A stretch of DNA of 64,000 nt, counting the filler, from Circinaria calcarea (taxonomy: Eukaryota): NCBI GenBank assembly GCA_051942165.1. It is 6 parts of 6 records of this genome, joined end to end, with 100 filler letters (N's around TTAATTAATTAA, not from the genome) between each part and the next. Parts side by side here need not be neighbours in the genome. Positions count along the whole stretch, not along the records: positions 10,790 to 21,475 come from JAVECS010000775.1; 5 more parts are not named here. One strand, given 5' to 3'. The notes beneath the pieces are model-generated. The model worked only from the letters and a program-made list of their open reading frames with translations. It was not told where the DNA came from and did no database searches. The translations under genes and the position numbers were made by a program. This document shows positions 4,601 to 53,882 of this stretch, piece by piece. Every line of letters begins with the position of its first letter. Within the stretch, counting starts at the first letter, position 1.

Positions 4601-7257
4601 GAGTGGGTACAAATGCTTGGATTGAATCCAATTCCACCGAAAATTGTGAGATCTCAAAGCTTCATCAACAAGCAGGACAGAATGAAAGTTCTCCCGGCGC
4701 CTCCTGTATCGGAATTAACAGTGCCAATCATACCCACTACCCCGACCAAGAGTCGTACTCCAAGTCCCGGGGAGATTGAGATTCCAATTGGAGAGCGGGC
4801 AGGCGAGACTTCCAAGACTTGGACTGAGTCTCTTAGCAAACCTGCTTTACCAACCATGCCTGCAGCGACGCCTTCAAGGGAACGGAATCGATTACAAAAG
4901 ATACTACGAGACTCACCTTTTATTACATCTAGGAGACCCACTAGCAACTCGCCGTCAATGCCCACCGACCTTCAGTCTCAGAGATCTGACAGTCCGACGA
5001 TATTACCTGATTCGCCTTACTCGCCTAGGAATCTCAATGAGGCACTAAGCATGGCGGGTAGTAGTTCAGCTCCTGGCTTGCGGCGAGCCAAAGCGAAGCG
5101 GAGGTCCAGGCACGCCGATGAGACGTCAACTAGTCCTCTATCAACACCTTTGGGCGAGGACGAGAATCTTCACAAGCCGTACGTTGAGACTACCACATTT
5201 CCAGAAGTACAACCGGACAGTTTAGTCAAGCCCCGGAGTTTGCTCCCAGAGGCAATAGAAATATGCCACGACAGTAGTCACAAACGCAGTCCCGGCAAGG
5301 CCAAAGGTCAAACAAGGCCTAGATATCATCGATCGATGTCATCAGTTCCTTCATTAGAATTACCTGTAATTCCAAAGATTCGGAAAGATAGCCCACCTCC
5401 TACCCCGACCTTTGAGCCTGAAGAAGAGCCGGATTGGCCTACTCCAGGCGCTGAAGACGCATATCCTCCCAGCACACCTTCGAAGTTGACCAAGAAACGC
5501 CAAGGGGGTTCACCAGTAAAGACCGAGGTGCCTCCTTCACCCCCAGCACATCGATCTCCAAGTCCCGTCCAGATTAAAGGATCTCGGACTCCGGATCTTA
5601 GTTCGGCATCAGCCCACAAAGCACGTCGAAGATCCTCATCGCCTCTGAAGCATGAGTATGAGCCGTCCACTGCATCGGAGTCGTCTTCTGACTCCGACGC
5701 ATCTACAGTCGCGCGCAATGAGGCGGCTTCGATATCGGACTCCTCCGAAGACGAGGAGCTTGAGGATGGCGATGTCCCAACACCTTTACTCCCCTTGGGC
5801 GTTTTGCAGCGTATTTCAAAGGCATCCCCACAAGAGTCTCTATCTTCGTCGGCGAATGATACGTTGTCGCCATCTCAATCGGCCTCTCAAGCCCCATATA
5901 AGAGTGTTCCGTCTCAGCCAAGTAAAGCTTCCAAGACGATTGCATCCATCTTCTCCTGGTCTGACAAAGGCTGTTGGCAGAGTTTACATGCCGAGGAATG
6001 CAGTATAGTAATTACCCCTGGCTTGATCGAGGCGTTTGAAATGTCAGCCGCACATTCTGAAGACTCTCCTTCCCCGCCGCCACCCGAGCCCGATGACGAT
6101 TCTGAGCTTTCCTCAAGCCAAGTTGAAGAACCAAAAGTAGACAAACCTCTTATCGGGCTAGAATTGACGCCTCTGGTCCCCATTCGCCGCGGGACAGCCC
6201 TTGATATCTCTATCCGCTCTCCTCCAACCTCCAACTCTAAAATCACGTCTGGAAACAACATCATGTTTCGCAGCCGGAACCCAGAAGAATGCGAAGCCCT
6301 CTACGCCCTGATAAACTACTCTCGAATTAACAATCCAACCTATATCGCCCTCCAAAACGCCCGCGTAACTTCGTCCTTTGGTCCTACTTTTGATCGCAGC
6401 AACTCAGTCCGTCCTCGAAGCAGCAGTTGGTTTGGGTTTGGCCATGGTGGCAGAAGTAGCTACAGAGCCAGCAGCGCCCCTACGCCTAGTATCGCTCCTA
6501 GCGAAAGCAGCATCGGTAGTATGTCAAGCGCGTTCTCGGCACTGAAACGCTTTGGCAAAGGAGGTAGCATGTTCAACATTGCTCGCTCGACTATCACCAG
6601 CCGCACCGGCAGTCGTGCTAATAGCGTCTACACCTCCTCCGACAACTCGAGTGGTAGCGGTGCCAGTTCTCCCCTTCCTCCAGGGCTTACACCCCCTATT
6701 CCCATGAATGCGAACGAAGAATCAAAATCCTCACCTTTGGGTCTCAGTAATGCAAAAATCCGTCTTTACATCCGTGAAACGGCTTCCAAATGGCGAGATC
6801 TTGGTTCCGCCCGGCTCACTATCATGCGCCCCACGAACTCCTCACACCCCCTATTAACGCCAGCTTCTGCTCAACGGAATGCGCAGTCGCAAGATGAGAA
6901 AAGGATCTTGGTCCGGGGAAAGGCGGCAGATACATTACTGCTGGACGTTACATTGGGGGAAAGTTGTTTTGAAAGGGTAGCCAGAACCGGGATTGCGGTG
7001 AGTGTCTGGGAAGCCTTTGAGGGGGGAATGGTGCAGAAGGAGGGCGGGGTTGTGGGGGGAAGTTTGAAGGTGTACATGATTCAGGTATGCCGAGTTTTCT
7101 TTCTTATTTGTTGGCCATGAAGAGGTGTAGCCTAGGTTTAGAGGGCATTTCGAAGATACTACGGTAGAGACCTGTACTGACTGGCGGTGGGTTACAGATG
7201 AAGAGTGAAGCGGAGACGGCTTACACGTTTTCGATTGTGGGCAAGTTGAGGTACTGA
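1682..7257 (+). CDS. Large conserved fungal protein (~1820 aa), Ser/Pro/Arg-rich, with a DH (RhoGEF)-like helical block and PH-like domains; exons 1682-7084, 7198-7257
   Basis: 1812-aa ORF. The block ELANDESKYIRELLTLVDGVIPVLL...FLLKRPLVRLKYL is DH-like and the C-terminal KIRLYIRETASKWRDLGSARL block is PH-like. Intron GTATGC(7085)..CAG(7197) adds MKSEAETAYTFSIVGKLRY*. Confidence 0.75.
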
Positions 7258-10689: not shown

Positions 10690-10789
10690 NNNNNNNNNNN
10701 NNNNNNNNNNNNNNNNNNNNNNNNNNNNNNNNNTTAATTAATTAANNNNNNNNNNNNNNNNNNNNNNNNNNNNNNNNNNNNNNNNNNNN
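10690..10789. other. Artificial contig-joining spacer (N44-TTAATTAATTAA-N44)
   Basis: Exactly 100 bp, stop codons in all six frames, identical at five places in the window. Confidence 0.98.
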
Positions 10790-11369
10790 GGGAGGGAGGG
10801 GAGGATCAAAGGAAGCATTAGAACGGAGAATAAGCGGAGGTGCAAGATAGGGAGCGGTTTTCAATATTGTGGGTATTACGGTTATACCCCACCGCAGTAC
10901 CCGCCGGTGTTCACCGCAGCACCCAGTACAACAATATCGTGTGCCATCTAGAACCCCAGACGGTCCGGCTACCTTGTGTATGGCCGAAACATGGCTCCAA
11001 TCACAAGGGGAGACCCAGAAATAGCAGACATAGCGGGCGAAGGAGTGGAAGAAGAAGGCAGCTCAACATTCGAAGACAACGTGTCCGAAGGGAGTAGCTG
11101 AGGTAAGGAGCGAGGGGAAATTAGTAGTAGAATGGTAAGAAATCACATAGTTATGAAGAGATATAGATGGCATTAGATATAGTATATAGTATAGTATGTA
11201 TATAGTGATGCAACTTACTCTTACTATTGACGCTTCCGCTCGTTTCATCCCCACTTCCCCTCCCAATTCTTCCGTAGTGTTCTCTTCCTCTCCTCTCCCC
11301 TCTTCCGTCGCGCTTCACCACTGTAATCCTCCCAATCATCATCCAATCAACCACGGAAGTGCCCGCGTG

Positions 11370-12350
11370 GGAGGAGTGCCCCTTAGCGTAATGTAGTCCA
11401 CGGCAAGCCCGAACAGCTTCGTAAGTAAAAAGGCGGAACTCCATCATATCAGGGAGCTCTAGTTGGCGCTCCATTCAATGCTTAATCACCGAAAGAGGTC
11501 CTCTATCGGGTTGTAATTGTGAGAGTAGGGCCCGAGGGGAGGAAAAGAACGTCGGCGCTCTCGCGAAGGAGTCAAACTTCCCGGTGAAATAGTTAGTAGA
11601 TAAGAAATATATAAGGGAATGATGTATCGCACAGTGAATAGAAGCATTATCCATTACGAATCGATTTTAGACCGGATTGCAACAAGAAAGAACTTAATCT
11701 GGAGAAAACTACTCATATCGGGCACCATTAATACATTTGATATTGACAACGACGAAGGATGCCGTCCGACATACAGGCTGGCAATAAATTCCACCTCATT
11801 GACCGTTTTACTGGGCCTGTTACCGGAGGGAGAGATATCAAAGGCGGCCCACCCGTACTTCCGGTCTTCCGTATGCTTATTCGCAAAACTCTCACCAAGG
11901 AAGACGGACCGGTTGGCACTGTACCGGCTTGTTCGAAGGATGCAGTCGTCTTTTACCAGCTGAAAACATTCCTTGGCTACCCGCTTCATGAATCTCCGGC
12001 TTATTTTCATTCTTCCAATGGCCCTCGAAACTGTAAACCTCGAAAAGAATATATAAAATGCGTCGAAGAGTTATAATAGCATCGTACTCTACTTAAGCAG
12101 GGCTTAGCCACTATAAGGCGAGTAAGCTGGCTCTCATTCTGGCATTCAGTCGACGAAGGAGCCTTGAGCAGCATTGATCGGGGGGGGCGCTCTCGCGAAA
12201 TGTCCGCAGGGTCACTAGAAAGGTCCGAACAACTTTCTCCGACACGCCTCCTACATATATCTACTAACCCGGGGTCTTGCCAGTCTAATCTGAAAATGGT
12301 GTTGATTCAAGTTCCTTGCTCGTTTAACAGGGGAGGTATGGTATATTACG
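11370..12350 (-). pseudogene. Degenerate Tc1/IS630-type (DDE_3) transposase; boundaries approximate
   Basis: Minus-strand fragments across frames: FTVSRAIGRMKISRRFMKRVAKE...VFLGESFANKHTEDRKYGWA (cf. VFLDES..N....RKYGWA), KRSMRWNLLPA, VMDNASIH, PYSHNYNPIE. Stops and frameshifts are present. Confidence 0.8.
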
Positions 12351-12819
12351 GCACCTAGCCTCATCAGTATATGCTTCCGAAAAGAGGCAAAAGACGTACA
12401 CAAGGTTAATTTCATCCAAGCATGCTTCAACCCGTAGAAGGGGTTATCACAAGCTTAGGGCCTGTTCGGTAACCTCTGATTATTGGAATGGATTCGGTTC
12501 CTGAAAATCTGCCAAGTGAGCGTTCGGGTGACACATTTAATTTAGGCGTAAATACGTCCTGACCTATTTATAGAGATTTTCGCTGACGATTTTGCGTTAA
12601 ATACACAACAACATCCACGACAAAATGGATGACATAGATGAATTCTATGCGGAACAGGCAGTAATCATTATTCTAGCTTACCATATATCGAATCATTATG
12701 TAAAAACCTTTGTAATAGTTCTATTATGACCGGTGAAGCATATCTAAATAAGTTGCCTACTGTTGCGAATCATAAACGCCTGCAAAAACGATTGCGTATG
12801 CTATAGTATTGCTTCGTGG

Positions 12820-15255
12820 CTCCACAAGCATGGTGGGAAGCCTGACTCTCGCACCTTTGAACAACCGACAGTTTCGCGAGCTAGTCCCCCCTCCGCCAAA
12901 CAGCTCTCCCCCCGATCAGCGTCGTCAGCTGCTTCAGAAGCTGAATAGCGAAGCAGGCGACAACTCCGAGGCCAAGGTTACAAAGCGTTTGCATTAAAAC
13001 ATGGGCGATATCCTCCACAGACGGAAACCGGGCTCGACGTCCTAGTGCCTGATGGTCTGCATAGGCACTCTACGAGACCAGCCCCTTCATATCGGTGCAT
13101 ACCCCCAGCTCTTTAACATCATGGATTGCCTCGACCACGCAAACCCCAGTCTCAGCATCCTGGAAATCGGGGCTGGAACGGGTGGTGCAACGCGTGTAGC
13201 GATGAAAGCCTTCATCGGTCCGCACGGCATCAAGCGCTACGCCGACTGCACCTTCACCGATATTTCAGCGGGCTTCCTCACATCTGCGCAAGAGTCCACG
13301 TCTGAGTTCCACAATATCAAGTTCTTCGTCTTTAACGTAGAGAAGGATCTGCAGCAGCAGGATATGAACCAGTCTACAACCTGGTCATGGCACCACAGGT
13401 CATACATACAAAGGCCAGCATGGATAGGACTTTTTGGCGAACTGCCGGAGGTTCTAAAGCCATGCAGAAAGTTGGTCTTGGTTGGGAGCACCCGCATGCG
13501 ACGCTTACCCGGTCTCCTGTACGGTACCCTGACCGGATATTGGCTTGGTATCACCGACGGCCGTTCGGAGGGCCCTTTTGTCAATCCTCAGACATGGGAC
13601 TTGCGCCTGCAGAGAGTCGGATTCTCGGGGATTGAGCTGCATTTGGACGATTATCCTCGTCCACACAACACTACCCCCCACTACCCCCGTTCTTGTGTCC
13701 ACTCGTCTTGGAACAGAGGATGCACTAGAAAGTATCAATTGTGGTAATAAGTGTTGGCGCTGGGGTTTATTTTTTCCATAGTGCCAAGGCTACTCTACTT
13801 GTTCTACACTACCTCGCCCAGGAACCTTCAACGCTGTGGCATCCCATCCAAGACAGCTCCGTTTGAAGGGGCGTTGGTTATCGCATCGACAAATCGCCGT
13901 CGTGGCTTTCCCGACAGCAAGAACCTCATGCTGGATGCCGACGACCATCGCCTGAAGCTCTTCCTGCATCTCGCCCGTGCTGCGAGTAAGGTCTGGTTGA
14001 CGTTTAGCGGCACCGTTAAAGGCCGCAATCCCGAAGGCGGTTTTTTATCGGGCTCCTTCGGACGATGAGCACGAAGAACCCTGCAGGCCGGTTTTTTTAA
14101 AATCGATATCGACGCCGAGGTGTTTGACACCGAGAACGATGATTTTGTCCGCGGCATTGTCGACCACGAGGTCGCTCTTCAGGGCCAAGGAGCCGACGAC
14201 GAGAGCGAAGACCGTCAGTTTCTCGGGTAGGACGGCTTCATATGGGTAAGCCGCGTTGCGCCTGACGCAGGGCTTGAGCCGTATGCCAAGACTATCAAGA
14301 TGCTAAAGAGCCGTGGCGCCGAGCTGCTACCCTGGAAAGCCAAGGACCCGTGCGTGCTGCCTTCGGGGACGCCGGGTATTCTCAGCTCGCTGTACTTCCG
14401 GCACTACACAGAACTATGGCAGCCTCTAGCATAGGACTACATCGAGGTCAAAGTTGGCCCCTTAGGCCTCAACTTAGGCCTCACGTCAAGCCGATTCGAT
14501 GCCAATAGCAACAACCTCCTGTCCGAGTACGCCGCCGTCGTGACCAAAACGGGCGCGGATGTGGCCAGCTTATCTGTTGGTGACTGCGCTAGGGCATGGA
14601 GTGAGGGCATTTTGGCAACTACACGCGCGTGCCGGCTGCGTTTGCGCAGAAGCTTCGGCCCAGCGACGATCTGGTCGAGATGACCACAATTCCAGTGGTT
14701 TAGACGACTGCATTGTATTCGTTCAACCATGTCGCCCGGCTCAGGAAGAGGCAAAAGGTCCTAATCCTGTCAGCCATCGGAGGTCTAGGATCCAGCTTGC
14801 GTGGTCCAAAAGGGCCGAGGTGTATGCCATTGTAGATACCATCGAGAAGGCCCGCTTCCTTGTCGACTCCATGGCCATCACGTCTCTCACATTGTTTCCT
14901 TGCGGGACCCTTCGCCCTTGTTCCGGGCTGCGAGCATGACGGGCAAGGCCGTCTTCGATGTCATTCTCAGCACTGTTATTGGAGGAGATTTGCTGTACGT
15001 GTCTCTGAAAGCTCTCGCACACACAGGCCACCTGATTGACGTAGGCCGGCTGAACTCAAAGACGGTAAGTCTGGAACTTTTCCAAAAGAATGCCAGCTTT
15101 TCCTCATTCGACCTGAACCTTATTCTGAATCCTATTCTTAACCACAATCAGGAGCTCAGCGGGCAGCTGATGAAGACTGTAGACGAGCTCTACTGTGCGG
15201 GACACATCGCTTCGATCCATCCGCTATCTACTGCGGACGTCTCCGACCTGGACGT
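12820..15255 (+). pseudogene. Highly reducing PKS fragment (C-methyltransferase + enoylreductase region), frameshifted, no KS/AT/DH/KR/ACP seen
   Basis: HANPSLSILEIGAGTGGAT (SAM-binding motif), CTFTDISAGFL, LYGTLTGYW, FGTPGILSSLYF, YIEVKV..LGLN, GHLIDVGR, LELFQKNASFSSFDL, spread over several frames with in-frame stops. Confidence 0.88.
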
Positions 15256-15393
15256 GACGGACGTCCTTGTGCGACGGATAGAATTTAAGTGTTGCTGATG
15301 TTAAGAAGGCTACGATGCCGTGCCTCGTCAAGAAGTGCGGCTTACCAAAGATCGACAACGTTGTGGCAAAGCTCAAGAACACCTGCAGGTCAT

Positions 15394-15495
15394 CACGCGG
15401 GTGACAAAAAAGTTGGCACGGTCGAAATTGTATTTGGTGTTGAGTTTGGGTGTCGCTAAATGCTGGACCGTGCCAACTTTTTTGTCACCCGCGTG
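15394..15495. mobile_element. 102-bp MITE: perfect 30-bp TIRs, 42-bp spacer, 5-bp TSD GTCAT
   Basis: CACGCGGGTGACAAAAAAGTTGGCACGGTC (15394-15423) and its exact reverse complement (15466-15495). GTCAT flanks both ends (15389-15393, 15496-15500). Confidence 0.88.
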
Positions 15496-16469
15496 GTCAT
15501 GTGCCAGAGGCGGATGCACCACTTGGCGGTGGGCAGCGAGCAAGGCTTGCAAGCCCGAAGGTGACTTTTCTTGTTGCTCTTTGATCGAAGTTTAAGCCGT
15601 GTGGCAGTAAAGATAGCCGGGGGACTGATCATGCGGAGCGGTATTCTGGAGTCCACATCATTCTTAATGAGTCATGTAATTATCTATAGTCCTATGTATT
15701 TCCAGAAAGCTTGAGTCCATGGGTTTGCAGCGACTTAGTAGGAACTTGAAAGAGAACTCTGTCAGGCCTTTTGGGCTAGTCACTCGGGCGTATGTTATTC
15801 CGAGCGCCCACACACCCATAGATAATTTCTCTTGCGGTATTGCAAGCAGCAGAGCATAGCAACCCATACACTTACTCTTACTCCTTCTCGCCTCTCATTT
15901 ACATGCGACCAATGCGAATCCAAGTCATCCTTATATAACATGCTGTGCTCGGCCAATCTCAAGAACACCACAACGGCATGGCACACGGCATTGGTAGGTT
16001 GCGCACATCAGATATCTTCCAGCAGCGCCTTCCTGTTATCTGCCTCTCCCTTTGCCTCAGTGCCACCTCCGCAAGCTCCGGAGGCCACAGACTTCTTTCG
16101 TACTAGCTCCACGTAAAAAAGTTATTCCGATCCGGTATTATGTAATCCTTTTTTGAAAGAAGTCTGAGAGAAATATCCACGAAACATATGGAAGTCGCGA
16201 CGTTTGTTAGCGATTTATATACAAAGTGTCGCGACTTCCCCGCGCTCCTAAAACACGATTTTTATCAACCACGTAACCACCACGCATAATTCATTAAATT
16301 CGCTCTAATATTCTCTTCGAAATAATTATGGCTGTATATTAATCAACTTTTTATTGAATTTGACCTGGTTTTTATCGAATAAAGCGGGGTAAACGTGCAC
16401 GAAAAAAAAAATTATAAAACGCTAATACTTCTAGAGCCTCAACTCGAAACACTAATAAATTTGGCTCTG

Positions 16470-16603
16470 TGTTACGTCCCTAAGCTTCTTAGGCAAAGGC
16501 AATGCTAGTCACTGGTATAAGGCAGGGGCTCTGTCCGACAGGTCACGAGGTTCTATACCAATGACTAGCATTGCCTTTGCCTAAGAAGCTTAGGGACGTA
16601 ACA
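16470..16603 (+). repeat. Putative 5' LTR (134 bp, TGTTACG...CGTAACA) forming a 51-bp inverted repeat
   Basis: Arms 16469-16519 and 16554-16604 are complementary with one mismatch. TATAA lies at 16516. The gag ATG is 47 nt downstream. The 3' LTR is not available to confirm. Confidence 0.72.
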
Positions 16604-16650
16604 CGTTGACCACCCGACCCTCCTAGGTACCGACTCTTGTCAGGAACGAC

Positions 16651-18327
16651 ATGGCACCGAATACAGTAACCAGCCCCACTCCGACAGTGGCGGGCGGTTC
16701 CGGTCAGCATACAGCGGCACAGCTTATGGCTCTGATCGAAGGACTTCAGTCTCAGATAGGGGACCTGTCGGCACAGAATACGGCCCTACACGAGGAGTGC
16801 AACGACATCAAAGAGAAGTATGACTCCGCTCGAAGAGCTAAAGACATGAAAGTCAAGGAACCTCAGACGTTCCATGGAGATCGCAAGAAGCTTAAGAGCT
16901 TTGTGACTCAGTTGGATCTGTGGATCCATACTCACCAGGCGCATTTCGAAAGCGAAGAAAGCAAAGTATTCTTCGCGTCTACCTACCTGAGGGACACTGC
17001 GTTCGAATGGTTCGAACCAACTCTGAAAGATCGGTTGAACAACACGGAACGCACCCAGGATGAGGAAACTAAAAGCGTATTCAAGGATTTCGACGTGTTC
17101 AAGGAACGAATCCAGCAGGTGTATGGAGACATCGATGAAGAACGGACTGCAGAAAGACAGATAGGCGCGCTCGTCCAGAAGGGACCTGCCTCCGCCTACG
17201 CAGCCGATTTCCAACAGCTCGCATCACGAACCAATTGGGATGATGCAGCACTAACGAACCAGTTCTATAGGGGACTGAAGGATGCAGTCAAGGACGACGT
17301 CGCTAGAGGCGACCGACCGGATGACTTGCAGGGCATGATCGCCGCAGCAATCCGGATTGACAATCGACAGTATGAACGCCGATTGGAGAAAAAGAACAAT
17401 CACGGAGAAGTGGTGTATGCGTCCAAGAAACAGAAGAATAGTAGCAAAGCCTACTATGGACCGCAACCCATGGAAATTGATGCAATGCAAGCACGACGAC
17501 CATTTAGGAGGAATAACTCCCAGGCCGTGCAGAAAGCGGAAAGACTCTGCTTCAATTGCAACAAACCCGGACATCAGGCTAGAAATTGCAGACAAAAGAA
17601 GCAATTTAACGCCACGACTAGGACAGCCCGGAGGCCACAATTAAATGCAACAAAACCGGCTCCCAGTCATGCATCCATGTCCTGGACCGCATGCTATGAA
17701 GATGCATGTGAGATACACAGATCCGAGAAAGATGGATCTGGATGGTACCCCAAGCAGCCGAGAAGGCGTGCAAGCCTTTGCGCAACTCGAACAGTTGGGA
17801 AAGGGAAGCAAGTTGGCTACAGTCAACAGGGACCATCCCAAGTACAAGAGGAGTCAGAAACCTCTGAGGAGGAATCTTCAGAAGAGGATACGCTCGATGC
17901 GGACACGATCGAAGCGTTAGAACAGACCCACTTGCAGCAGTCTCAAGCCGAGGAAAAGAGCTTGACAGAAGAGATTGAATCCGCGACGGAAGGGATTAAG
18001 AACTTGATTGAGCAGTTTTCTAGACTCAAACAAAGAGTCGATCAGCTCAAAACCGTCCGATTCACTCCAGAGACTAGAGGCGAGGCCCCTAGCACTAGTT
18101 TTTACGGCATCATACAGGAAGTTGTACCGCCAGGAAGCAGGTTTACCAGGAACGGAGGATATGTGACGCCTAACAATGGCTATATCTCCCACGAACTCCG
18201 AGAGCGTGTGAGAGGTCTGAAGATCCTCTACCGCAAACAGGATCCACAGGAGCATCCCAGAATGGCAGTGAATCCGGCCAGATTCCAGTTTGCCAGGGAC
18301 TCAGGGAGTTCGAGTTCAAAAAACTAA
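16651..18327 (+). CDS. gag: Retrotransposon Gag (capsid + CCHC zinc knuckle + C-terminal extension)
   Basis: PQTFHGDRKKLKSF, KVFFASTYLRDTAFEWF, QFYRGLKDAVKD, GPQPMEID, CFNCNKPGHQARNC. Confidence 0.95.
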   Translation: MAPNTVTSPTPTVAGGSGQHTAAQLMALIEGLQSQIGDLSAQNTALHEECNDIKEKYDSARRAKDMKVKEPQTFHGDRKKLKSFVTQLDLWIHTHQAHFESEESKVFFASTYLRDTAFEWFEPTLKDRLNNTERTQDEETKSVFKDFDVFKERIQQVYGDIDEERTAERQIGALVQKGPASAYAADFQQLASRTNWDDAALTNQFYRGLKDAVKDDVARGDRPDDLQGMIAAAIRIDNRQYERRLEKKNNHGEVVYASKKQKNSSKAYYGPQPMEIDAMQARRPFRRNNSQAVQKAERLCFNCNKPGHQARNCRQKKQFNATTRTARRPQLNATKPAPSHASMSWTACYEDACEIHRSEKDGSGWYPKQPRRRASLCATRTVGKGKQVGYSQQGPSQVQEESETSEEESSEEDTLDADTIEALEQTHLQQSQAEEKSLTEEIESATEGIKNLIEQFSRLKQRVDQLKTVRFTPETRGEAPSTSFYGIIQEVVPPGSRFTRNGGYVTPNNGYISHELRERVRGLKILYRKQDPQEHPRMAVNPARFQFARDSGSSSSKN

Positions 18328-18376
18328 CAGGCACCTCTCCGCAGAGACAGGAGGAGGCTTGCCAAAAGAAGTCTCT
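18318..18376 (+). promoter_or_regulatory. -1 programmed ribosomal frameshift signal (A AAA AAC + predicted H-type pseudoknot)
   Basis: The slippery heptamer 18318-18324 directly precedes the gag TAA. The pol frame is -1 and open from 18324. Paired stems follow downstream. Confidence 0.85.
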
Positions 18377-21300
18377 ATGTGCGACGGCACTAGCAGATCA
18401 GATCAAAGTTATGATCAAGGTTGGTGGAGGAGTCGTCGAAGCAATGATCGACTCAGGAGCGAATGGTAGCTACATGTCGCCGAAGTTTGCAAGAAGCAAC
18501 AGAATCCCAATTCGAGAAAAGGCAGAGCCCTATCAATTGGAAGCCATCAACGGGACCATGGTCAATTCAGCCGAACAAGGCGTACACCAGGAAACCCACG
18601 AGGTATCGATGAGTATCGGTACGCACCAAGAAAATATCAGTTTCGATATTGCAGAGATGGGTGAGCACCAAGTAATCTTGGGAATGTCATGGTTGAGGCA
18701 GCAGAACCCGCAAATCGATTGGAATACCGGCCGCCTGCAGTTCGGAAGGATGCAGAGCAATTACGAAGAAGTTAACCGCAGTCAACTTAGCCGAAGAAGC
18801 AATAAGGCGTCAATACGCAGCTTATGGTGCAAACTGGACGCGTGTGTAAGATCCGCAGAGGACCTCTCACCGCCAGAACAATACAAGCAGTTCGCAAAAC
18901 TATTCGAAGAAGACAAAACAGCAAATGCCTTACCAGAGCATAAGCCATGGGATCATGAGATACCCTTGGAAGAAGGTACCAAACCAACCTACGGACCTAT
19001 TTACGCCTTGTCAGCGAAAGAACTTGAAGTACTGAAGGAGTACTTGGATGAGAACCTGAAGAAAGGGTACATACGACCCTCGGTTTCTCCAGCAGGTTAT
19101 CCAATCCTATTCGTCCCGAAGAAGGATGGTAAACTCAGACTGTGCGTGGACTATCGACAGCTGAACCAGATCACCATCAAGAATCGATACGCACTACCAC
19201 TCATATCGGAGCTGGTTGATCGATTACTGGGCAAGAAGTGGTTCACCAAGTTGGATCTCTTGGGGGCTTACAACTTGATACGAATGAAAGAAGGTGAGGA
19301 ATGGAAAACGGCGTTTAGAACCCGTTACGGCCATTATGAGTATATGGTCATGCCATTCGGTCTCACAAATGCACCAGCAACCTTCCAGATGTTAGTAAAC
19401 GAGATACTACACGAGTACCTGGATATATTTGTGGTTGCTTACCTGGATGATATCTTTATCTTCTCAGATACAGAAGAGGAACACGTCAGGCACGTCACTT
19501 CCGTCTTGGAGAAGTTAGAAGGAGCGAACCTCAAGGTAAAGCTAGAGAAGTGCGTGTTTCACTCTCAGCGAGTTGAGTTTCTAGGACATATCATCACACC
19601 AGGAAAGATAGAAATGGACCCGGCCAAGATCACAGCAATCATGGAGTGGCCTACGCCAAAGAACGTAAAGGATGTGCAATCGTTCTTGGGACTAGCCAAT
19701 TTCTATCGACGATACATCAGTGGCTACTCGAAGGAAGCGACGCCGCTGACGAACATGACCAAAAAGGGCTATGCCTTCCGTTGGACGGAAGAGGAACAGC
19801 GGGTGTTCGACGGACTCAAGCAGAAGTTCGCCGCGAAACCCGTACTCTATGAATTTGATCCAGAGAAAGAGATCACCGTGGAAACCGACTCCTCCGATTA
19901 CGCAATAGGAGCCCGGATTAGTCAAGCGGACGAGAAAGGGAGGTTACACCCCATAGCATTCTATTCGAGGAAGCTATCTCCAGCCGAGTTGAACTACGAT
20001 ATCCACGACAAAGGACTGTTAGCAGTTGTGGCAGCATTCGAGGAATGGAGAGTTTACCTAGAAGGACCCAGGTACGAGGTCAAGGTACTCACTGACCATA
20101 AGAACTTGCTATACTTCACTACCACGAAAGTATTGAACAGACGACAGGTTCGTTGGGCCGAAACCTTGTCAAGATACAACTTCCGGATCACTTACAGAAA
20201 AGGATCGGAGAACACTCAAGCAGACGCGTTGAGTAGGAGGCCAGATTACCTTGAAAACAAAACACAGGTTTCGCATGCAATATTTGTGGAGAAAGCATTG
20301 GTTTATAACCGTCCACAGCTAGCAGCAACCATGCAGATCGAAAACAGCAATTTCGAGGAGGTAATCAAGAAAGCAAACCAGGATGACCCCATTGCAAAAG
20401 AAATGATTGAGAAAACACCCGATAACGAGAACTTCGAGGTAAGAAACGGATTACTAGTGTTTCAGAACCTAGTGTACATCCCGGTCTCTCTCAGGAAACA
20501 GGTAGTCGAAGACTACCACGATGCTAAGATCAGTGGTCACCAAGGTGTTGCGAGAACACTGGAAAAGTTGTCAAGGATGTACTACTTTCCAGGCATGCGG
20601 AGGTATATCGAGAAGTATATATCCCGATGCGATGTGTGCAACAAAACGAAGTCTGCAAGACACAAACCACACGGGGAGTTGAAATCACCCAGAGCACCAG
20701 ATCGTGCGTGGGGTTCAGTGGCTATGGACTGGATCGTTAAGTTGCCAGCATCAAAAGAACCAATGACAGATATCGTATACGACTCGATTCTGGTCATTAC
20801 GGATAGACTCACGAAGTACGGTTATTTTCTACCTTACTTGGAGGCATCCTCAGCAGAGGACTTGGCATACAATGTCCTACGAGTGATAGTTAGCAACCAC
20901 GGGTTACCCGACGAGTTCGTGTCTGACAGAGACAAACTACTCACATCAAAGTTTTGGCAGTCACTAGTTGCACAACTAGGGGTGAAACATAAGCTATCAA
21001 CAGCTTACCATCCACAGACTGATGGCCAAACGGAAAGACTTAACCAGACGCTGGAGCAGTATCTACGCTGCTATGTCGATTATCAGCAAACCAATTGGGT
21101 AACGTTACTTCCCATTGCACAGTTTGCATACAATAGCGCTGAATCAGAGACGATCAAAACATCACCATTCTTTGCCAACTATGGGTATCATCCAACGATA
21201 CAGAAGGAACCAAGAGAGGTACTAGCAATTGTACAACAAGCCAACATGAAGGTTGAAAAAATCCAGTTCCTCCACAAAGAATTGAGCCAGGACATTGCAT

Positions 21301-21475
21301 TTCTAAGTGCAAGATCAGCGATCTATTACAACAGGACCCACGGGAGTGGACCCGATCTAAAAGAGGGGGGTAAAGTATACCTACTTAGGAGAAACATCAA
21401 AACAACACGACCAAGCGATAAACTGGACTTCAAGAAAATTGGACCATTCAAAATTCTGAAGAAGCTATCCGCAGT
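18324..21475 (+). CDS. pol: Retrotransposon Pol (aspartic protease, RT, RNase H, integrase), 3'-truncated
   Basis: MIDSGA, LRLCVDYRQLN, MPFGLTNAPATFQ, YLDD, ETDSSD/TDH, H-H-C-C zinc finger, SDRD, HPQTDGQTERLN. Confidence 0.96.
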
Positions 21476-21575
21476 NNNNNNNNNNNNNNNNNNNNNNNNN
21501 NNNNNNNNNNNNNNNNNNNTTAATTAATTAANNNNNNNNNNNNNNNNNNNNNNNNNNNNNNNNNNNNNNNNNNNN
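21476..21575. other. Artificial contig-joining spacer
   Basis: N44-TTAATTAATTAA-N44. Confidence 0.98.
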
Positions 21576-22010
21576 GAGTATATAGTATAGCACGGAAAGA
21601 GCATGCAGCATAGCATGGAATAAGCATGTAGTATAGTATGGAAAGAGCATGCAGTATAGTATGGAAAGAGTATATAGTATAGTATGGAAAAAGCATGTAG
21701 TATAGCATTGAGCATATTATAGCGAAAACACGCGGCATAATATAGCGAAAGCACGCAGCATAGTATAGAGTATAGCACGCAGCATAGTATAGCTGGCGGC
21801 ATAGTATGGAAATGGCACGTGGTATAGCATGGAAATAGCACGTGGTATAGCATGGAAATGGCACGTAGCATAGCACGCAGCATAGCATAGAAATGGCACG
21901 TAGTATAGCACACAGTATAGCATAGTACGCAGCATAGCATGACTCGCAGCATAGCATGGCTCGCAGCATAGCATAGTATAATAAGAAGTATAAAATAGCA
22001 TAAGCTCAGT
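21576..22010. repeat. Degenerate satellite-like tract of short units (ATAGC/ATAGT/ATGGAA/GCACG)
   Basis: Repeated GCATAGTATAGTATGGAAAGAGCAT and ATAGCATGGAAATGGCACGTGGT variants. The ORFs over it are Tyr/Cys/Ala low-complexity artefacts. Confidence 0.85.
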
Positions 22011-32255: not shown

Positions 32256-32355
32256 NNNNNNNNNNNNNNNNNNNNNNNNNNNNNNNNNNNNNNNNNNNNT
32301 TAATTAATTAANNNNNNNNNNNNNNNNNNNNNNNNNNNNNNNNNNNNNNNNNNNN
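32256..32355. other. Artificial contig-joining spacer
   Basis: N44-TTAATTAATTAA-N44. Confidence 0.98.
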
Positions 32356-43019: not shown

Positions 43020-43119
43020 NNNNNNNNNNNNNNNNNNNNNNNNNNNNNNNNNNNNNNNNNNNNTTAATTAATTAANNNNNNNNNNNNNNNNNNNNNNNNN
43101 NNNNNNNNNNNNNNNNNNN
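43020..43119. other. Artificial contig-joining spacer
   Basis: N44-TTAATTAATTAA-N44. Confidence 0.98.
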
Positions 43120-51345: not shown

Positions 51346-51404
51346 AGTAGAGGCTTAGTTGTCTCTTATAGGGACAGTCGGGTAATATAGAAGAATGGAA
51401 TACG

Positions 51405-52112
51405 CGCGGAATCAGAGACGATTCAGACGTCCCCATTCTTTACGAACTACGGATTCAACCCCACACAGAAAGAACTCAAAGAGGTCAGATAAATCGCACA
51501 ATAAGCGAACATGAAAGTTGAAAAAATCCAGTATTTGCACAAAGAACTGAGCAGAGACATCGCATTTTTGAGTGCGAGATCCGCGATTTATTATAACAGG
51601 ATCCACGGGAGTGGACCAGATCTGAAAAGAGAGGGGTAAAGTATATCTACTTGGGAGAAACATCAAGACAATACGTCCGAGCGACAAGTTGGACTTCAAG
51701 AAAATTGGACCGTTCAAAATCCTAAAGAAGGTAACCACGGTCAATATATCGGCTAGATTTGCCAGAATAAATGAAGATCTACCCAGTGTTCTATATTTCC
51801 TTGCTCGAAGTAGTAGACCCCGAAACCCTCATACAGACTGAACCTCCAGAGGTCGCAGCCGACTCGAAAGAAGAATTCGAAGTCGAAGGCATCCTAGATG
51901 CGGGTAAGATTGGAAGAATAATGCACTATTTGGTGAAATGGAAAGGGTGTGATACCTCCGTAAACACATAGGAGTCATCCAAGCACCTTAGGTATTGCTG
52001 GCCGAAGGTTGAGGAGTTCCACCGCCGGAACCCAGAGGTTCCACGGACCCGTCAACCAGGTCGTCACAAAAGGAATCGGGAAGAGAGTGCAGAGAGGAGT
52101 CAGGAATCGTAA
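51405..52112 (+). mobile_element. Degenerate Gypsy integrase C-terminus + chromodomain, related to the contig-2 element
   Basis: Aligns by eye with 21143-21475 (e.g. GAATCAGAGACGAT..., GGACTTCAAGAAAATTGGACC), then IYPVFYISLLE and EFEVEGILD...HYLVKWKG...NT*E. Stops and frameshifts are present. Confidence 0.9.
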
Positions 52113-52159
52113 TACTAGAATCTATCGGAAGAAGGCCTTTGTCGTAGTCGGGGCATAAA

Positions 52160-52830
52160 CAAATAGCAATTCATGAACCAACTACGTTGATTTATGAATA
52201 GACTGGTTCCTTTACAAATCAACTGGGCATTCGTAAAGCAACCGTCCATTTATAAACAAATCAATTTGTACGTGCCCTGGCTAATGCTGCTTTTCCACTC
52301 GGGAAATTGGCAATAAAGCCACTGAAAATTAGCTAGGATCCCCGCTGCTGCCACGTACCTCGCTGCTGCCAGCCTGCCACATACCCTCGCTGCCGTCACG
52401 CATATCGCTGCCGCCACGCCCTTATTATCGCCGCTGTCGCTGTCGCTGTAGCTACGCGTTGTGGCTACGCGCTGTGGCGGCAGCGAGATGTATGGCGACA
52501 GCGAGGTGTATGGCGGCAGTGAAGGTGCGTGGCAGCAGCGAGATGCGTGACGGCAAGCGAGGGTGTATGGCAGCGAGGGTGTATAGCAGCAGCGAGGTGG
52601 TGGCGTGGCAACGGCGTGTATGAATGACGTGTATGTTCGACGTCATGCTCAACGGATTCGGAAAACGCCACGCGGGAGGCTGAAACGACTGAATAGGGCC
52701 TGTTCCTGGTTAGCATAATAGCAGCATTAGTTGATTCGTGAATAAAACGCGCTAAATCAGTTGATTTATGAATCCTGTGTTGATTCATGACACAACCGGA
52801 TCATTTATAAACCACATATATTCACGGGCC
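52160..52830. mobile_element. Foldback-like non-autonomous element: inverted arrays of GC-rich ~18-20-bp repeats with AT-rich repeated flanks
   Basis: CTCGCTGCCGCCAC-type units (52342-52420) are mirrored by GTATGGCGGCAGCGAG units (52470-52600). CTAATGCTGCT/AGCAGCATTAG forms an outer pair and GTTGATTTATGAAT occurs on both flanks. Confidence 0.6.
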
Positions 52831-53628
52831 AACGCCAACAAGCCCTGTCATGTAAGTCCTCCGAGGCTACGACAGCAAAACGATCGGCTGCGCCGCCTCT
52901 ATATTATGGGCGATAGAATAGGGGCCAAAGGCAGCGTTTTTATTGGTCCCGATGGTCTGGTCTGAGACCTAGACCAGTCCAGATTAATAGTCTGAAGCCT
53001 GCTCTGAAAATTGGCTGCAGCATGGTCGTGCAATAGATTAGGAGCTGAAAGAGATGCTGAATAGTCAGGGTGCAGGCAGATGAGTTGGTAACCCTCATTA
53101 ATTGGCTTGGTCGGGTTAGGTGCATTAACAGTCTCCCTCCCCCTCTCCAAAAAGACAACTGTAATCGTGCTCGACCCCTCCAAGATCATATATGGTATAT
53201 GCTTCTTGCAGCAAGCCAGGCTCAGGCTTCATCCTTTGAAGATGGTATTTACAGTGCGAAGCGGGACAGAAGCGGACCCTGACATGCCTTGAGAAGGCCA
53301 TAAAGCCTGATTAAGCTGATATATTTCGGCTTACCCAGACCCTTGCGTTGCCTGACTTTAAACAGGGCAGGCTTGATCGAGAAAGCAGTGGGGCCGTCAG
53401 CCTTCTCGACAGACTGCAGAAGATAGGTATGACTTTGCAGAGAAAAGGCTGGATCACTCGATAAAAGTCGGACTATCTAAAACCTGGCGAATCAGAGAAA
53501 CCTGGTGAGCAGCAGGCTGGATTTAGCAATACTGTTGGAGGATATTACACCTAATACAAGTAGCTCTAGCCGGGCAAGAGGAAGCCAAATCAGGCTCCCA
53601 CCTGCTGCGCCCCTGCACTGCCCCATAG

Positions 53629-53782: not shown

Positions 53783-53882
53783 NNNNNNNNNNNNNNNNNN
53801 NNNNNNNNNNNNNNNNNNNNNNNNNNTTAATTAATTAANNNNNNNNNNNNNNNNNNNNNNNNNNNNNNNNNNNNNNNNNNNN
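53783..53882. other. Artificial contig-joining spacer
   Basis: N44-TTAATTAATTAA-N44. Confidence 0.98.

Follow-up and report, generated by a model that had tools for sequence, protein, structure and literature searches.

A palindrome before gag in a Gypsy retrotransposon of Circinaria calcarea as a candidate fold-back product of self-primed reverse transcription

What is the palindrome that stands directly in front of gag in a retrotransposon of Circinaria calcarea, and could it be a long terminal repeat (LTR)? The first-pass annotation of this DNA offered two answers, i.e. a Gypsy lineage with hairpin LTRs or a template-switch product that replaced U3. The window, meaning the whole stretch of 64,000 nucleotides that was analysed, consists of six pieces of about 10.7 kb joined by linkers of the form N44-TTAATTAATTAA-N44 (at 10690-10789, 21476-21575, 32256-32355, 43020-43119 and 53783-53882), and the element lies in the second piece (10790-21475). 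Features at the ends of the pieces, e.g. the pol gene of this element, are cut by construction and not by biology. Piece 2 ends at 21475 within integrase, and the 3′ part of the element together with its 3′ LTR falls beyond that point.

The element belongs to the Ty3/Gypsy group (Metaviridae), as it has a gag with a CCHC zinc knuckle followed by protease, reverse transcriptase, RNase H and integrase in that order. Its gag matches the Pfam models Retrotrans_gag (7e-10) and zf-CCHC (5e-6), and its pol matches gag-asp_proteas (3-97), RVT_1 (235-395; 1e-38), RT_RNaseH (483-589), Integrase_H2C2 (690-748) and rve (793-868). In a search of 5.8 billion proteins the best match to this gag reaches 39% identity, and the few gag matches that carry a name come from ascomycetes (Pseudogymnoascus, Lasallia). 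The coordinates of the element and of the palindrome are summarized in Table 1.

Two features of the DNA to the left of the element can be noted. A perfect 12-bp inverted repeat (GGAAGTCGCGAC / GTCGCGACTTCC) with an AT-rich spacer of 26 nt occupies 16190-16239, about 230 bp upstream of the palindrome. Farther upstream, at 13046-15298 on the + strand, there are fragments of polyketide synthase (PKS) methyltransferase and enoyl-reductase type in different frames, together with a weak match of dehydrogenase type, so that a PKS gene, either decayed or rich in introns, seems to lie ahead of the insertion.

Table 1. Features of the element and its palindrome; positions count along the window.
Feature	Position	Strand	Description
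Left flank	16100-16468		AT-rich, 30-43% GC; treated as host flank
Left arm	16469-16519	+	Found by inverted-repeat search; reverse complement of the last 50 LTR (U5 end) bases and of one base before the primer-binding duplex
Left arm, inner part	16513-16519	+	TGGTATA, read as one half of a native 7-nt inverted repeat; the outer 43-44 nt are read as newly copied
Loop	16520-16553	+	34 nt, native U5 or its reverse complement; internal pairing imperfect
Right arm	16554-16604	+	Read as the native 3′ end of U5 in the 5′ LTR: ...CGTAACA to 16603, plus C16604
Predicted self-primer binding site (PBS)	16605-16613	+	GTTGACCAC; homologous to the PBS of relatives
Leader	16614-16650	+	Short untranslated stretch from the PBS to the gag ATG
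gag ORF	16651-18327	+	558 aa, intact; Retrotrans_gag, Ty3_capsid, CCHC zinc knuckle
pol ORF	18411-21475	+	Protease, reverse transcriptase, RNase H, integrase zinc-binding domain and core, Tf2-1-type SH3; open to the end of the piece

An inverted-repeat search of 16300-16800 finds a single inverted pair, with 51-nt arms that are 98% complementary and lie 34 nt apart. The sole mismatch sets C16512 opposite A16561 at the eighth pair counted from the loop, and it is flanked by seven perfect pairs on the loop side (TGGTATA/TATACCA) and by 43 perfect pairs on the outside. The whole palindrome measures 136 bp, ends 47 nt upstream of the gag ATG and encloses a TG...CA segment of 134 bp (16470-16603). 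Both the search and the sequence itself bear out the palindrome as it had been described at first pass, with 51-bp arms, one mismatch at C16512/A16561, a 34-nt loop and 134 bp from TG to CA. It had also been called the only TG...CA segment before gag. The 134-bp segment does exist, but TG...CA ends alone do not define an LTR, and here such ends are automatic because the last bases of the LTR (...CGTAACA) are duplicated in inverted orientation.

The palindrome exceeds chance expectation by far. The folding energy of 16440-16680 as RNA is -117.2 kcal/mol, while shuffled sequences average -62.1 (z = -11.9) and none of 200 folds equally well. A 43-mer of the arm occurs at only two sites in the 64-kb window, the two arms themselves, when up to three mismatches are allowed (0 expected from 100 shuffles), no second or solo copy of the palindrome is present in the other five pieces of the window, and an exact 24-mer of the arm has no match in three public collections, i.e. 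of genome, viral and metagenome contigs. Unique sequence borders the palindrome on either side, about 5.7 kb into its piece. An Rfam scan reports nothing over the gathering threshold; the highest-scoring model, mir-645, reaches 31.9 bits where 90 would be needed, and this resemblance is a generic hairpin likeness only.

Related elements were used to establish what an LTR of this clade looks like. The comparison set comprised 116 loci, of which 80 metagenome loci, five genome-record loci and one locus from a viral collection carry related gags and 30 are matches from the L082 record; the relatives from which the native LTR was derived have gags at most 48% identical to that of this element. Wherever both LTR copies are seen, neither is palindromic; they repeat in direct orientation and measure roughly 0.2-0.4 kb, with repeat matches of about 370 bp in L001, L028 and L072, 364 bp in L081, 222 bp in L082 and 431 bp in L086. 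These LTRs start with TGT... and end with ...ACA, and 5-bp target duplications (ACTTC in L028, ATTCT in L072) fix the LTR ends in both of these loci. A motif that joins the LTR end to the PBS, ...T[TA]ACA-C-NTTGA..., is found upstream of gag in 34 of the 80 metagenome loci. The distance from LTR end to ATG is 47 nt in the present element versus about 40-52 nt in L001, L045 and L075.

The PBS of the relatives pairs with their own transcript start. Of the 25 loci with 200 nt or more of upstream sequence, 21 have a 7-9-nt complement to the PBS at a distance of 127-299 nt upstream of the LTR end, as found by a search anchored at that end, and a strict TATA match precedes the complementary site by 36-46 nt in 16 of these 21. 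The four loci without such a site are L014, L065 and L077, which have no complement, and L075, in which the 5′ copy is rearranged; the complement is also present in L081, L082 and L086. PBS and transcript start covary through seven pairings, namely TTGAGCAC/GTGCTCAA, TTGAGCGT/ACGCTCAA, TTGAGCAT/ATGCTCAA, ATTGACCGC/GCGGTCAAT, ATTGATCGC/GCGATCAAT, TTTAGCCT/AGGCTAAA and TTGAACGCC/GGCGTTCAA. Judged from these sequences, the pattern is the signature of self-priming of the Tf1 type, in which an element supplies its own primer when the 5′ end of its RNA pairs with the PBS and is cleaved, as set out for Tf1 and Tj1 in the available part of PMC4600332. An unanchored search for PBS complements proved non-specific (reverse-complement matches of at least 8 nt in 48 of 56 loci, but also in 47 once the upstream sequence was shuffled, and direct matches in 42) and was discarded. 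The primer duplex of the relatives begins one or two bases past ...ACA, and their R-U5 regions are 98-300 nt long. When up to one mismatch is allowed, the longest stems in 24 R-U5 regions from the relatives have 7-11 bp, versus 51 bp here. Since none of the 24 exceeds 11 bp, a long hairpin is no trait of the clade.

Several loci of the comparison set have peculiarities of their own. L015, L028, L030 and L033 combine the PBS TTGAGCAT with the R start GTGCTCAA and carry many C-to-T differences from L001, which looks like transition-rich decay of the kind left by repeat-induced point mutation, with the self-primer pairing weakened. Palindromic or inverted arrays of short repeats lie in U3 just upstream of the TATA box in five loci (L025:94-142, L045:399-477, L046:602-680, L071:237-383 and L059:308-459), and such arrays close to the promoter may be something that members of the clade have in common. 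Genome-bin records filed as bacterial, i.e. L081 and the record that holds L082 (G001:C1, about 4.40-6.54 Mb), contain Gypsy elements of fungal type, and in G001 at least 30 diverged LTR matches fall close together, within about 2 Mb of a single sequence of 6.7 Mb. These records point to eukaryotic DNA in L081 and G001.

Against this background, the copy in C. calcarea keeps one end of a clade LTR. A profile of the LTR-end/PBS junction built from 19 distinct relatives (nhmmer) matches 16587-16620 with an E value of 0.0039, its only significant match in the window, and the motif also fits the end of the right arm when the sequence is read directly. Because of this match, the right arm can be taken to end at the end of U5, and 16605-16613 to be the PBS. 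The bases that follow the LTR, CGTTGACCACC, contain no TGG and thus no PBS of the tRNA type, and a tRNA scan of the window found no tRNA gene.

What this copy lacks is the other end of the LTR. The complement of its PBS is absent from the + strand of piece 2, and no complement of at least 7 nt to 16600-16655 occurs in 15900-16604; its PBS is therefore not paired with a transcript start in its own LTR, as it would be in Tf1-like self-priming. The profile of the clade's TATA/R-start block has no match upstream of gag in piece 2 at E values up to 100, and the left flank (16100-16468) has no significant likeness to the clade's U3/R block, so that no TATA box with a transcript start stands upstream of U5 as a functional LTR would have it. 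The only TATA-like site in the segment, at 16516, is 88 nt from the LTR end, versus R-U5 regions of at least 98 nt plus about 40 nt in the relatives. With both the TATA/transcript-start block and the PBS complement missing, the 134-bp segment could not work as an LTR of this clade. The missing PBS complement is read as a loss in this copy and not as another mode of priming.

Where, then, did the left arm come from? Going by the sequence, we put about even chances on the palindrome being a stub of the 5′ LTR, in which the final 51-85 bases of U5 follow an inverted copy of the final 51, that arose when reverse transcription folded back on itself. That it is a one-off fold-back of some kind, with routes at the level of reverse transcription and of DNA taken together, is probable. 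Of the two answers offered at first pass we favour the second, a template-switch product in the place of U3, which agrees with everything gathered here, as the right arm is homologous to the end of U5 and both the arm edge and the placement of the mismatch fit it. The left arm starts on its outer side with G16469, which is complementary to C16604. As the primer duplex in relatives starts one or two bases after ...ACA, C16604 would be the first base copied from a primer on 16605-16613, and because G16469 pairs with C16604, the left arm would begin where minus-strand DNA begins. The mismatch is also telling. It sits at the inner edge of the part that is presumed to be newly copied, between the 7-bp repeat and the 43-bp perfect part, and a 7-bp repeat, a mismatch and a perfect outer part are what would be expected from a snap-back in which the last templated base stayed unpaired and the rest was self-copied.

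The events can be pictured as follows. Minus-strand DNA would start at the self-primer on the PBS (16605-16613), copy C16604 and proceed leftwards through U5 for 93 nt. The nascent 3′ end would then snap back by means of a native inverted repeat of 7 bp (TGGTATA and TATACCA, 34 nt apart), with the last templated base left mispaired, giving the C16512/A16561 mismatch. Reverse transcriptase would copy the nascent strand to its own 5′ end, and the left arm would stop exactly at the complement of C16604. The fold-back molecule, ending in plus-sense U5 (and in the PBS, if the primer was copied), could take the role of plus-strand strong-stop DNA, and its extension would run on through gag-pol. A plus-sense U5-PBS end is the functional end of plus-strand strong-stop DNA, which would explain how the palindrome came to be joined to PBS, gag and pol. 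The left end of the resulting cDNA would be a second U5 end, with no U3-R, and the cDNA would be inserted either by integrase acting on two ends of the U5 type or by end joining; CTCTG (16465-16469) is a candidate for the 5-bp target site. We infer the order of these events (fold-back, plus-strand priming, insertion) from the finished product. The full course, a chromosomal fossil of self-primed minus-strand strong-stop DNA that acted as surrogate plus-strand strong-stop, gave rise to a full-length cDNA with two U5 ends and was inserted, is possible but rather doubtful. Such a copy should be dead on arrival despite its open gag and pol, because both the promoter block and its own PBS-pairing sequence are missing.

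A comparable structure is present in one relative. In locus L075, positions 1-138 of the contig are the reverse complement of the element's own 3′ LTR at 7117-7254 (137 of 138 positions), while 135-238 are a forward copy of 7151-7254, with 4 nt of microhomology shared at the joint. The architecture is that of the present copy, i.e. an inverted U5 end, a one-sided centre of about 30 nt and a U5 end. The gag of L075 also begins with MAPN, its PBS is of the same subtype as that of this element, and at its 3′ end it has an LTR of the usual kind that contains a TATA box and a self-primer site. The point of fold-back lies 127 nt inside R-U5, away from the 5′ end of the RNA. The structure stands at the very start of a metagenome contig and could be a chimeric read or an unintegrated cDNA. 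If the same architecture arose in this second, independent member of the clade, it would mean that such fold-backs are a recurrent by-product of Tf1-type self-priming. Judged by coordinates only, none of the 30 related-family matches in G001 (16 of which extend past the LTR end) has a U5-on-U5 palindrome, and the inverted repeats of G001 occur either ahead of the R-U5 part that was matched or in other places. The fold-back event, if it is recurrent, is rare.

A similar product could come about without reverse transcriptase. A 5′-truncated cDNA, or an inserted 5′ LTR that was broken, could have been resected at its end and have folded on the 7-bp repeat; a cellular polymerase would have done the fill-in, after which the hairpin end would be opened or joined to the chromosome through end-joining capture or break repair. 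This route yields nearly the same sequence, with an inner native repeat, a mismatch at the priming end and the loss of U3-R, and the 4-nt microhomology at the L075 junction also fits end joining; however, it gives no reason to stop at the primer-junction base (16469 pairs with 16604) unless this was already the 5′ end of a cDNA strand. On the assumption of arms of 100-300 nt, the coincidence of the stopping point was estimated, not computed, at a few per cent, and fold-back at the level of DNA is unlikely. The left arm may also be thought of as an older solo LTR, inverted and placed head-to-head with the 5′ LTR, from which a central deletion left 51-bp arms and an asymmetric 34-nt centre. In favour of this, the outer end of the left arm is a genuine LTR terminus adjoining DNA foreign to the element, and the minus strand has no PBS sequence after this terminus, as a solo LTR predicts. 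Several independent events would be needed, however (an insertion, formation of the solo LTR, a second insertion next to it and the deletion), the arms would have had to remain identical over 43 bp with the lone difference next to the loop by chance, and the window holds no other trace of the family's LTR, all of which makes this history improbable. A chimeric fold-back read or a mis-joined repeat could have produced the left arm during library preparation or assembly, and the sole comparable case, L075, does lie at the end of a contig. The chance of such an artefact is small, as the present palindrome is far inside its piece between unique flanks and a junction with 7 nt of homology cannot arise from a k-mer graph alone.

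The remaining explanations take the palindrome as a regular part of the element. The true 5′ LTR might start upstream in the AT-rich stretch, so that the palindrome would be a normal part of R-U5. By eye, TATAAAA at 16413 and CTCAACTCG at 16439 (CTCAAC) resemble the TATA box and R start of the clade, and the R-U5 region would then measure about 160 nt, within the range of the clade; to judge from the title of Lin and Levin (1998), Tf1 priming needs a stem-loop in U5. Yet the TATA/R profile does not report 16413-16451 even at E values up to 100, only 5 nt pair with the PBS in place of the 7-9 nt seen in most relatives, none of the 24 R-U5 regions of relatives has a stem of more than 11 bp, and GC content is about 50% inside the palindrome versus 30-36% just upstream. 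In addition, 16101-16650 aligns to the LTR side of a related fragment in piece 5 with a local score of 35, inside the shuffle range of 22-45. A native hairpin in U5 is thus very improbable. The hairpin-LTR lineage proposed at first pass goes further, as the 134-bp TG...CA palindrome would be the whole LTR, present at both ends of the element and as solo copies. It has in its favour the TG...CA ends, the right distance to gag and a putative LTR of only about 176 bp in L031, which indicates that short LTRs may occur in relatives. But 134 bp leaves no room for a TATA box, about 40 nt, an R start and an R-U5 of at least 98 nt, the segment has no PBS complement, the other five pieces hold no second or solo copy, and the stems and LTRs of the relatives are short and non-palindromic, respectively. 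Such a lineage is highly improbable, but were the 3′ LTR of this element the same palindrome, the idea would return. The fragment in piece 5 was tried as a stand-in for the 3′ LTR and rejected, since its alignment to 16101-16650 is within the shuffle range and what comes after it looks like a separate inverted-repeat structure.

Fold-back during self-primed reverse transcription can be set beside several known systems. Among them are the self-primed Ty3/Gypsy elements of the Tf1/sushi group, Tf1 and Tf2 of Schizosaccharomyces pombe and Tj1 of S. japonicus, which have the same order of protease, reverse transcriptase, RNase H and integrase and the Tf2-1-type SH3 domain. The likeness extends to the lack of a tRNA-type PBS and, in other clade members, to a PBS that pairs with the transcript start, insofar as PMC4600332 describes it in the portion available. 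It concerns domains and priming layout; gag is a distant relative of any named protein, its best match being the one at 39% identity. The copy described here differs in having an inverted U5 copy in place of the self-primer and promoter. In HIV-1, the cTAR hairpin allows the nascent 3′ end of the minus strand to prime its own copying (Guo et al. 1997; Driscoll and Hughes 2000, both as cited in the accessible text of PMC6088434). According to the same text, the product is palindromic and its outer edge is the primer junction, as is proposed here, and these self-primed products are a dead end in vitro that was not detected in endogenous reactions. The difference is that in C. calcarea the product would serve as a plus-strand primer and reach the chromosome, a step that was not found described in the literature searched. 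Snap-back synthesis by reverse transcriptases of R2 and of the group II intron-like kind is, in the excerpts available, similar in that a 3′ end folds on a short homology and is extended, but these are non-LTR or bacterial enzymes acting in other contexts.

Miniature inverted-repeat transposable elements (MITEs) and foldback elements share with the palindrome a short sequence that is almost wholly two inverted arms, but its right arm is the element's own U5 end. A MITE or foldback transposon was rejected, as the flanks differ (CTCT/G... on the left versus ...C/GTTG on the right), no target duplication is visible and no other copy is present in the window. DIRS-type retrotransposons likewise have inverted repeats at the end of a retroelement. 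They use a tyrosine recombinase, as far as the partial accounts go, whereas this element has a DDE integrase with a zinc-binding domain and an rve core. A search of the literature on hairpin, palindromic or inverted LTRs and on aberrant reverse transcription in LTR elements did not find this architecture described; the term "palindromic LTR" in papers on LTR finders was taken to mean the TG..CA motif.

If the fold-back reading holds, a single genomic copy would preserve a faulty route of reverse transcription that has otherwise been a subject of in vitro work only. Strong-stop DNA that has snapped back would then not need to be a dead end, and a cDNA with two U5 ends could reach the chromosome. 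The native LTR of the family would carry the self-primer within a few bases upstream of the position of C16512, and the 7-bp repeat would lie at the very 3′ end of full-length strong-stop DNA, like cTAR in HIV-1. For annotation, LTR finders that use TG...CA ends and terminal inverted repeats could call such stubs mini-LTRs or MITEs. The set of related loci also reveals a broad group of self-priming Gypsy elements in fungi with covarying PBS and transcript start, and this pairing is useful as a marker of LTR boundaries and transcript starts.

Other repeats are present elsewhere in the window. A degenerate integrase/chromodomain fragment of a related element occupies 51399-52110 in piece 5, with stop codons seen by eye and no pol upstream, and its first part (51399-51736) is 81% identical to 21132-21470. 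After this fragment, at 52346-52598, there is a palindromic array of GC-rich repeats of about 20-55 nt, and motifs resembling GTTGATTTATGAA are repeated on both sides of the array within 52150-52850, where a larger inverted structure is seen by eye; this region may be an element of the foldback type or a U3 repeat array. At the start of piece 3, 21576-21990 holds about 400 bp of imperfect tandem repeats with a unit of the AGCATGGAAA/GTATAGCA type.
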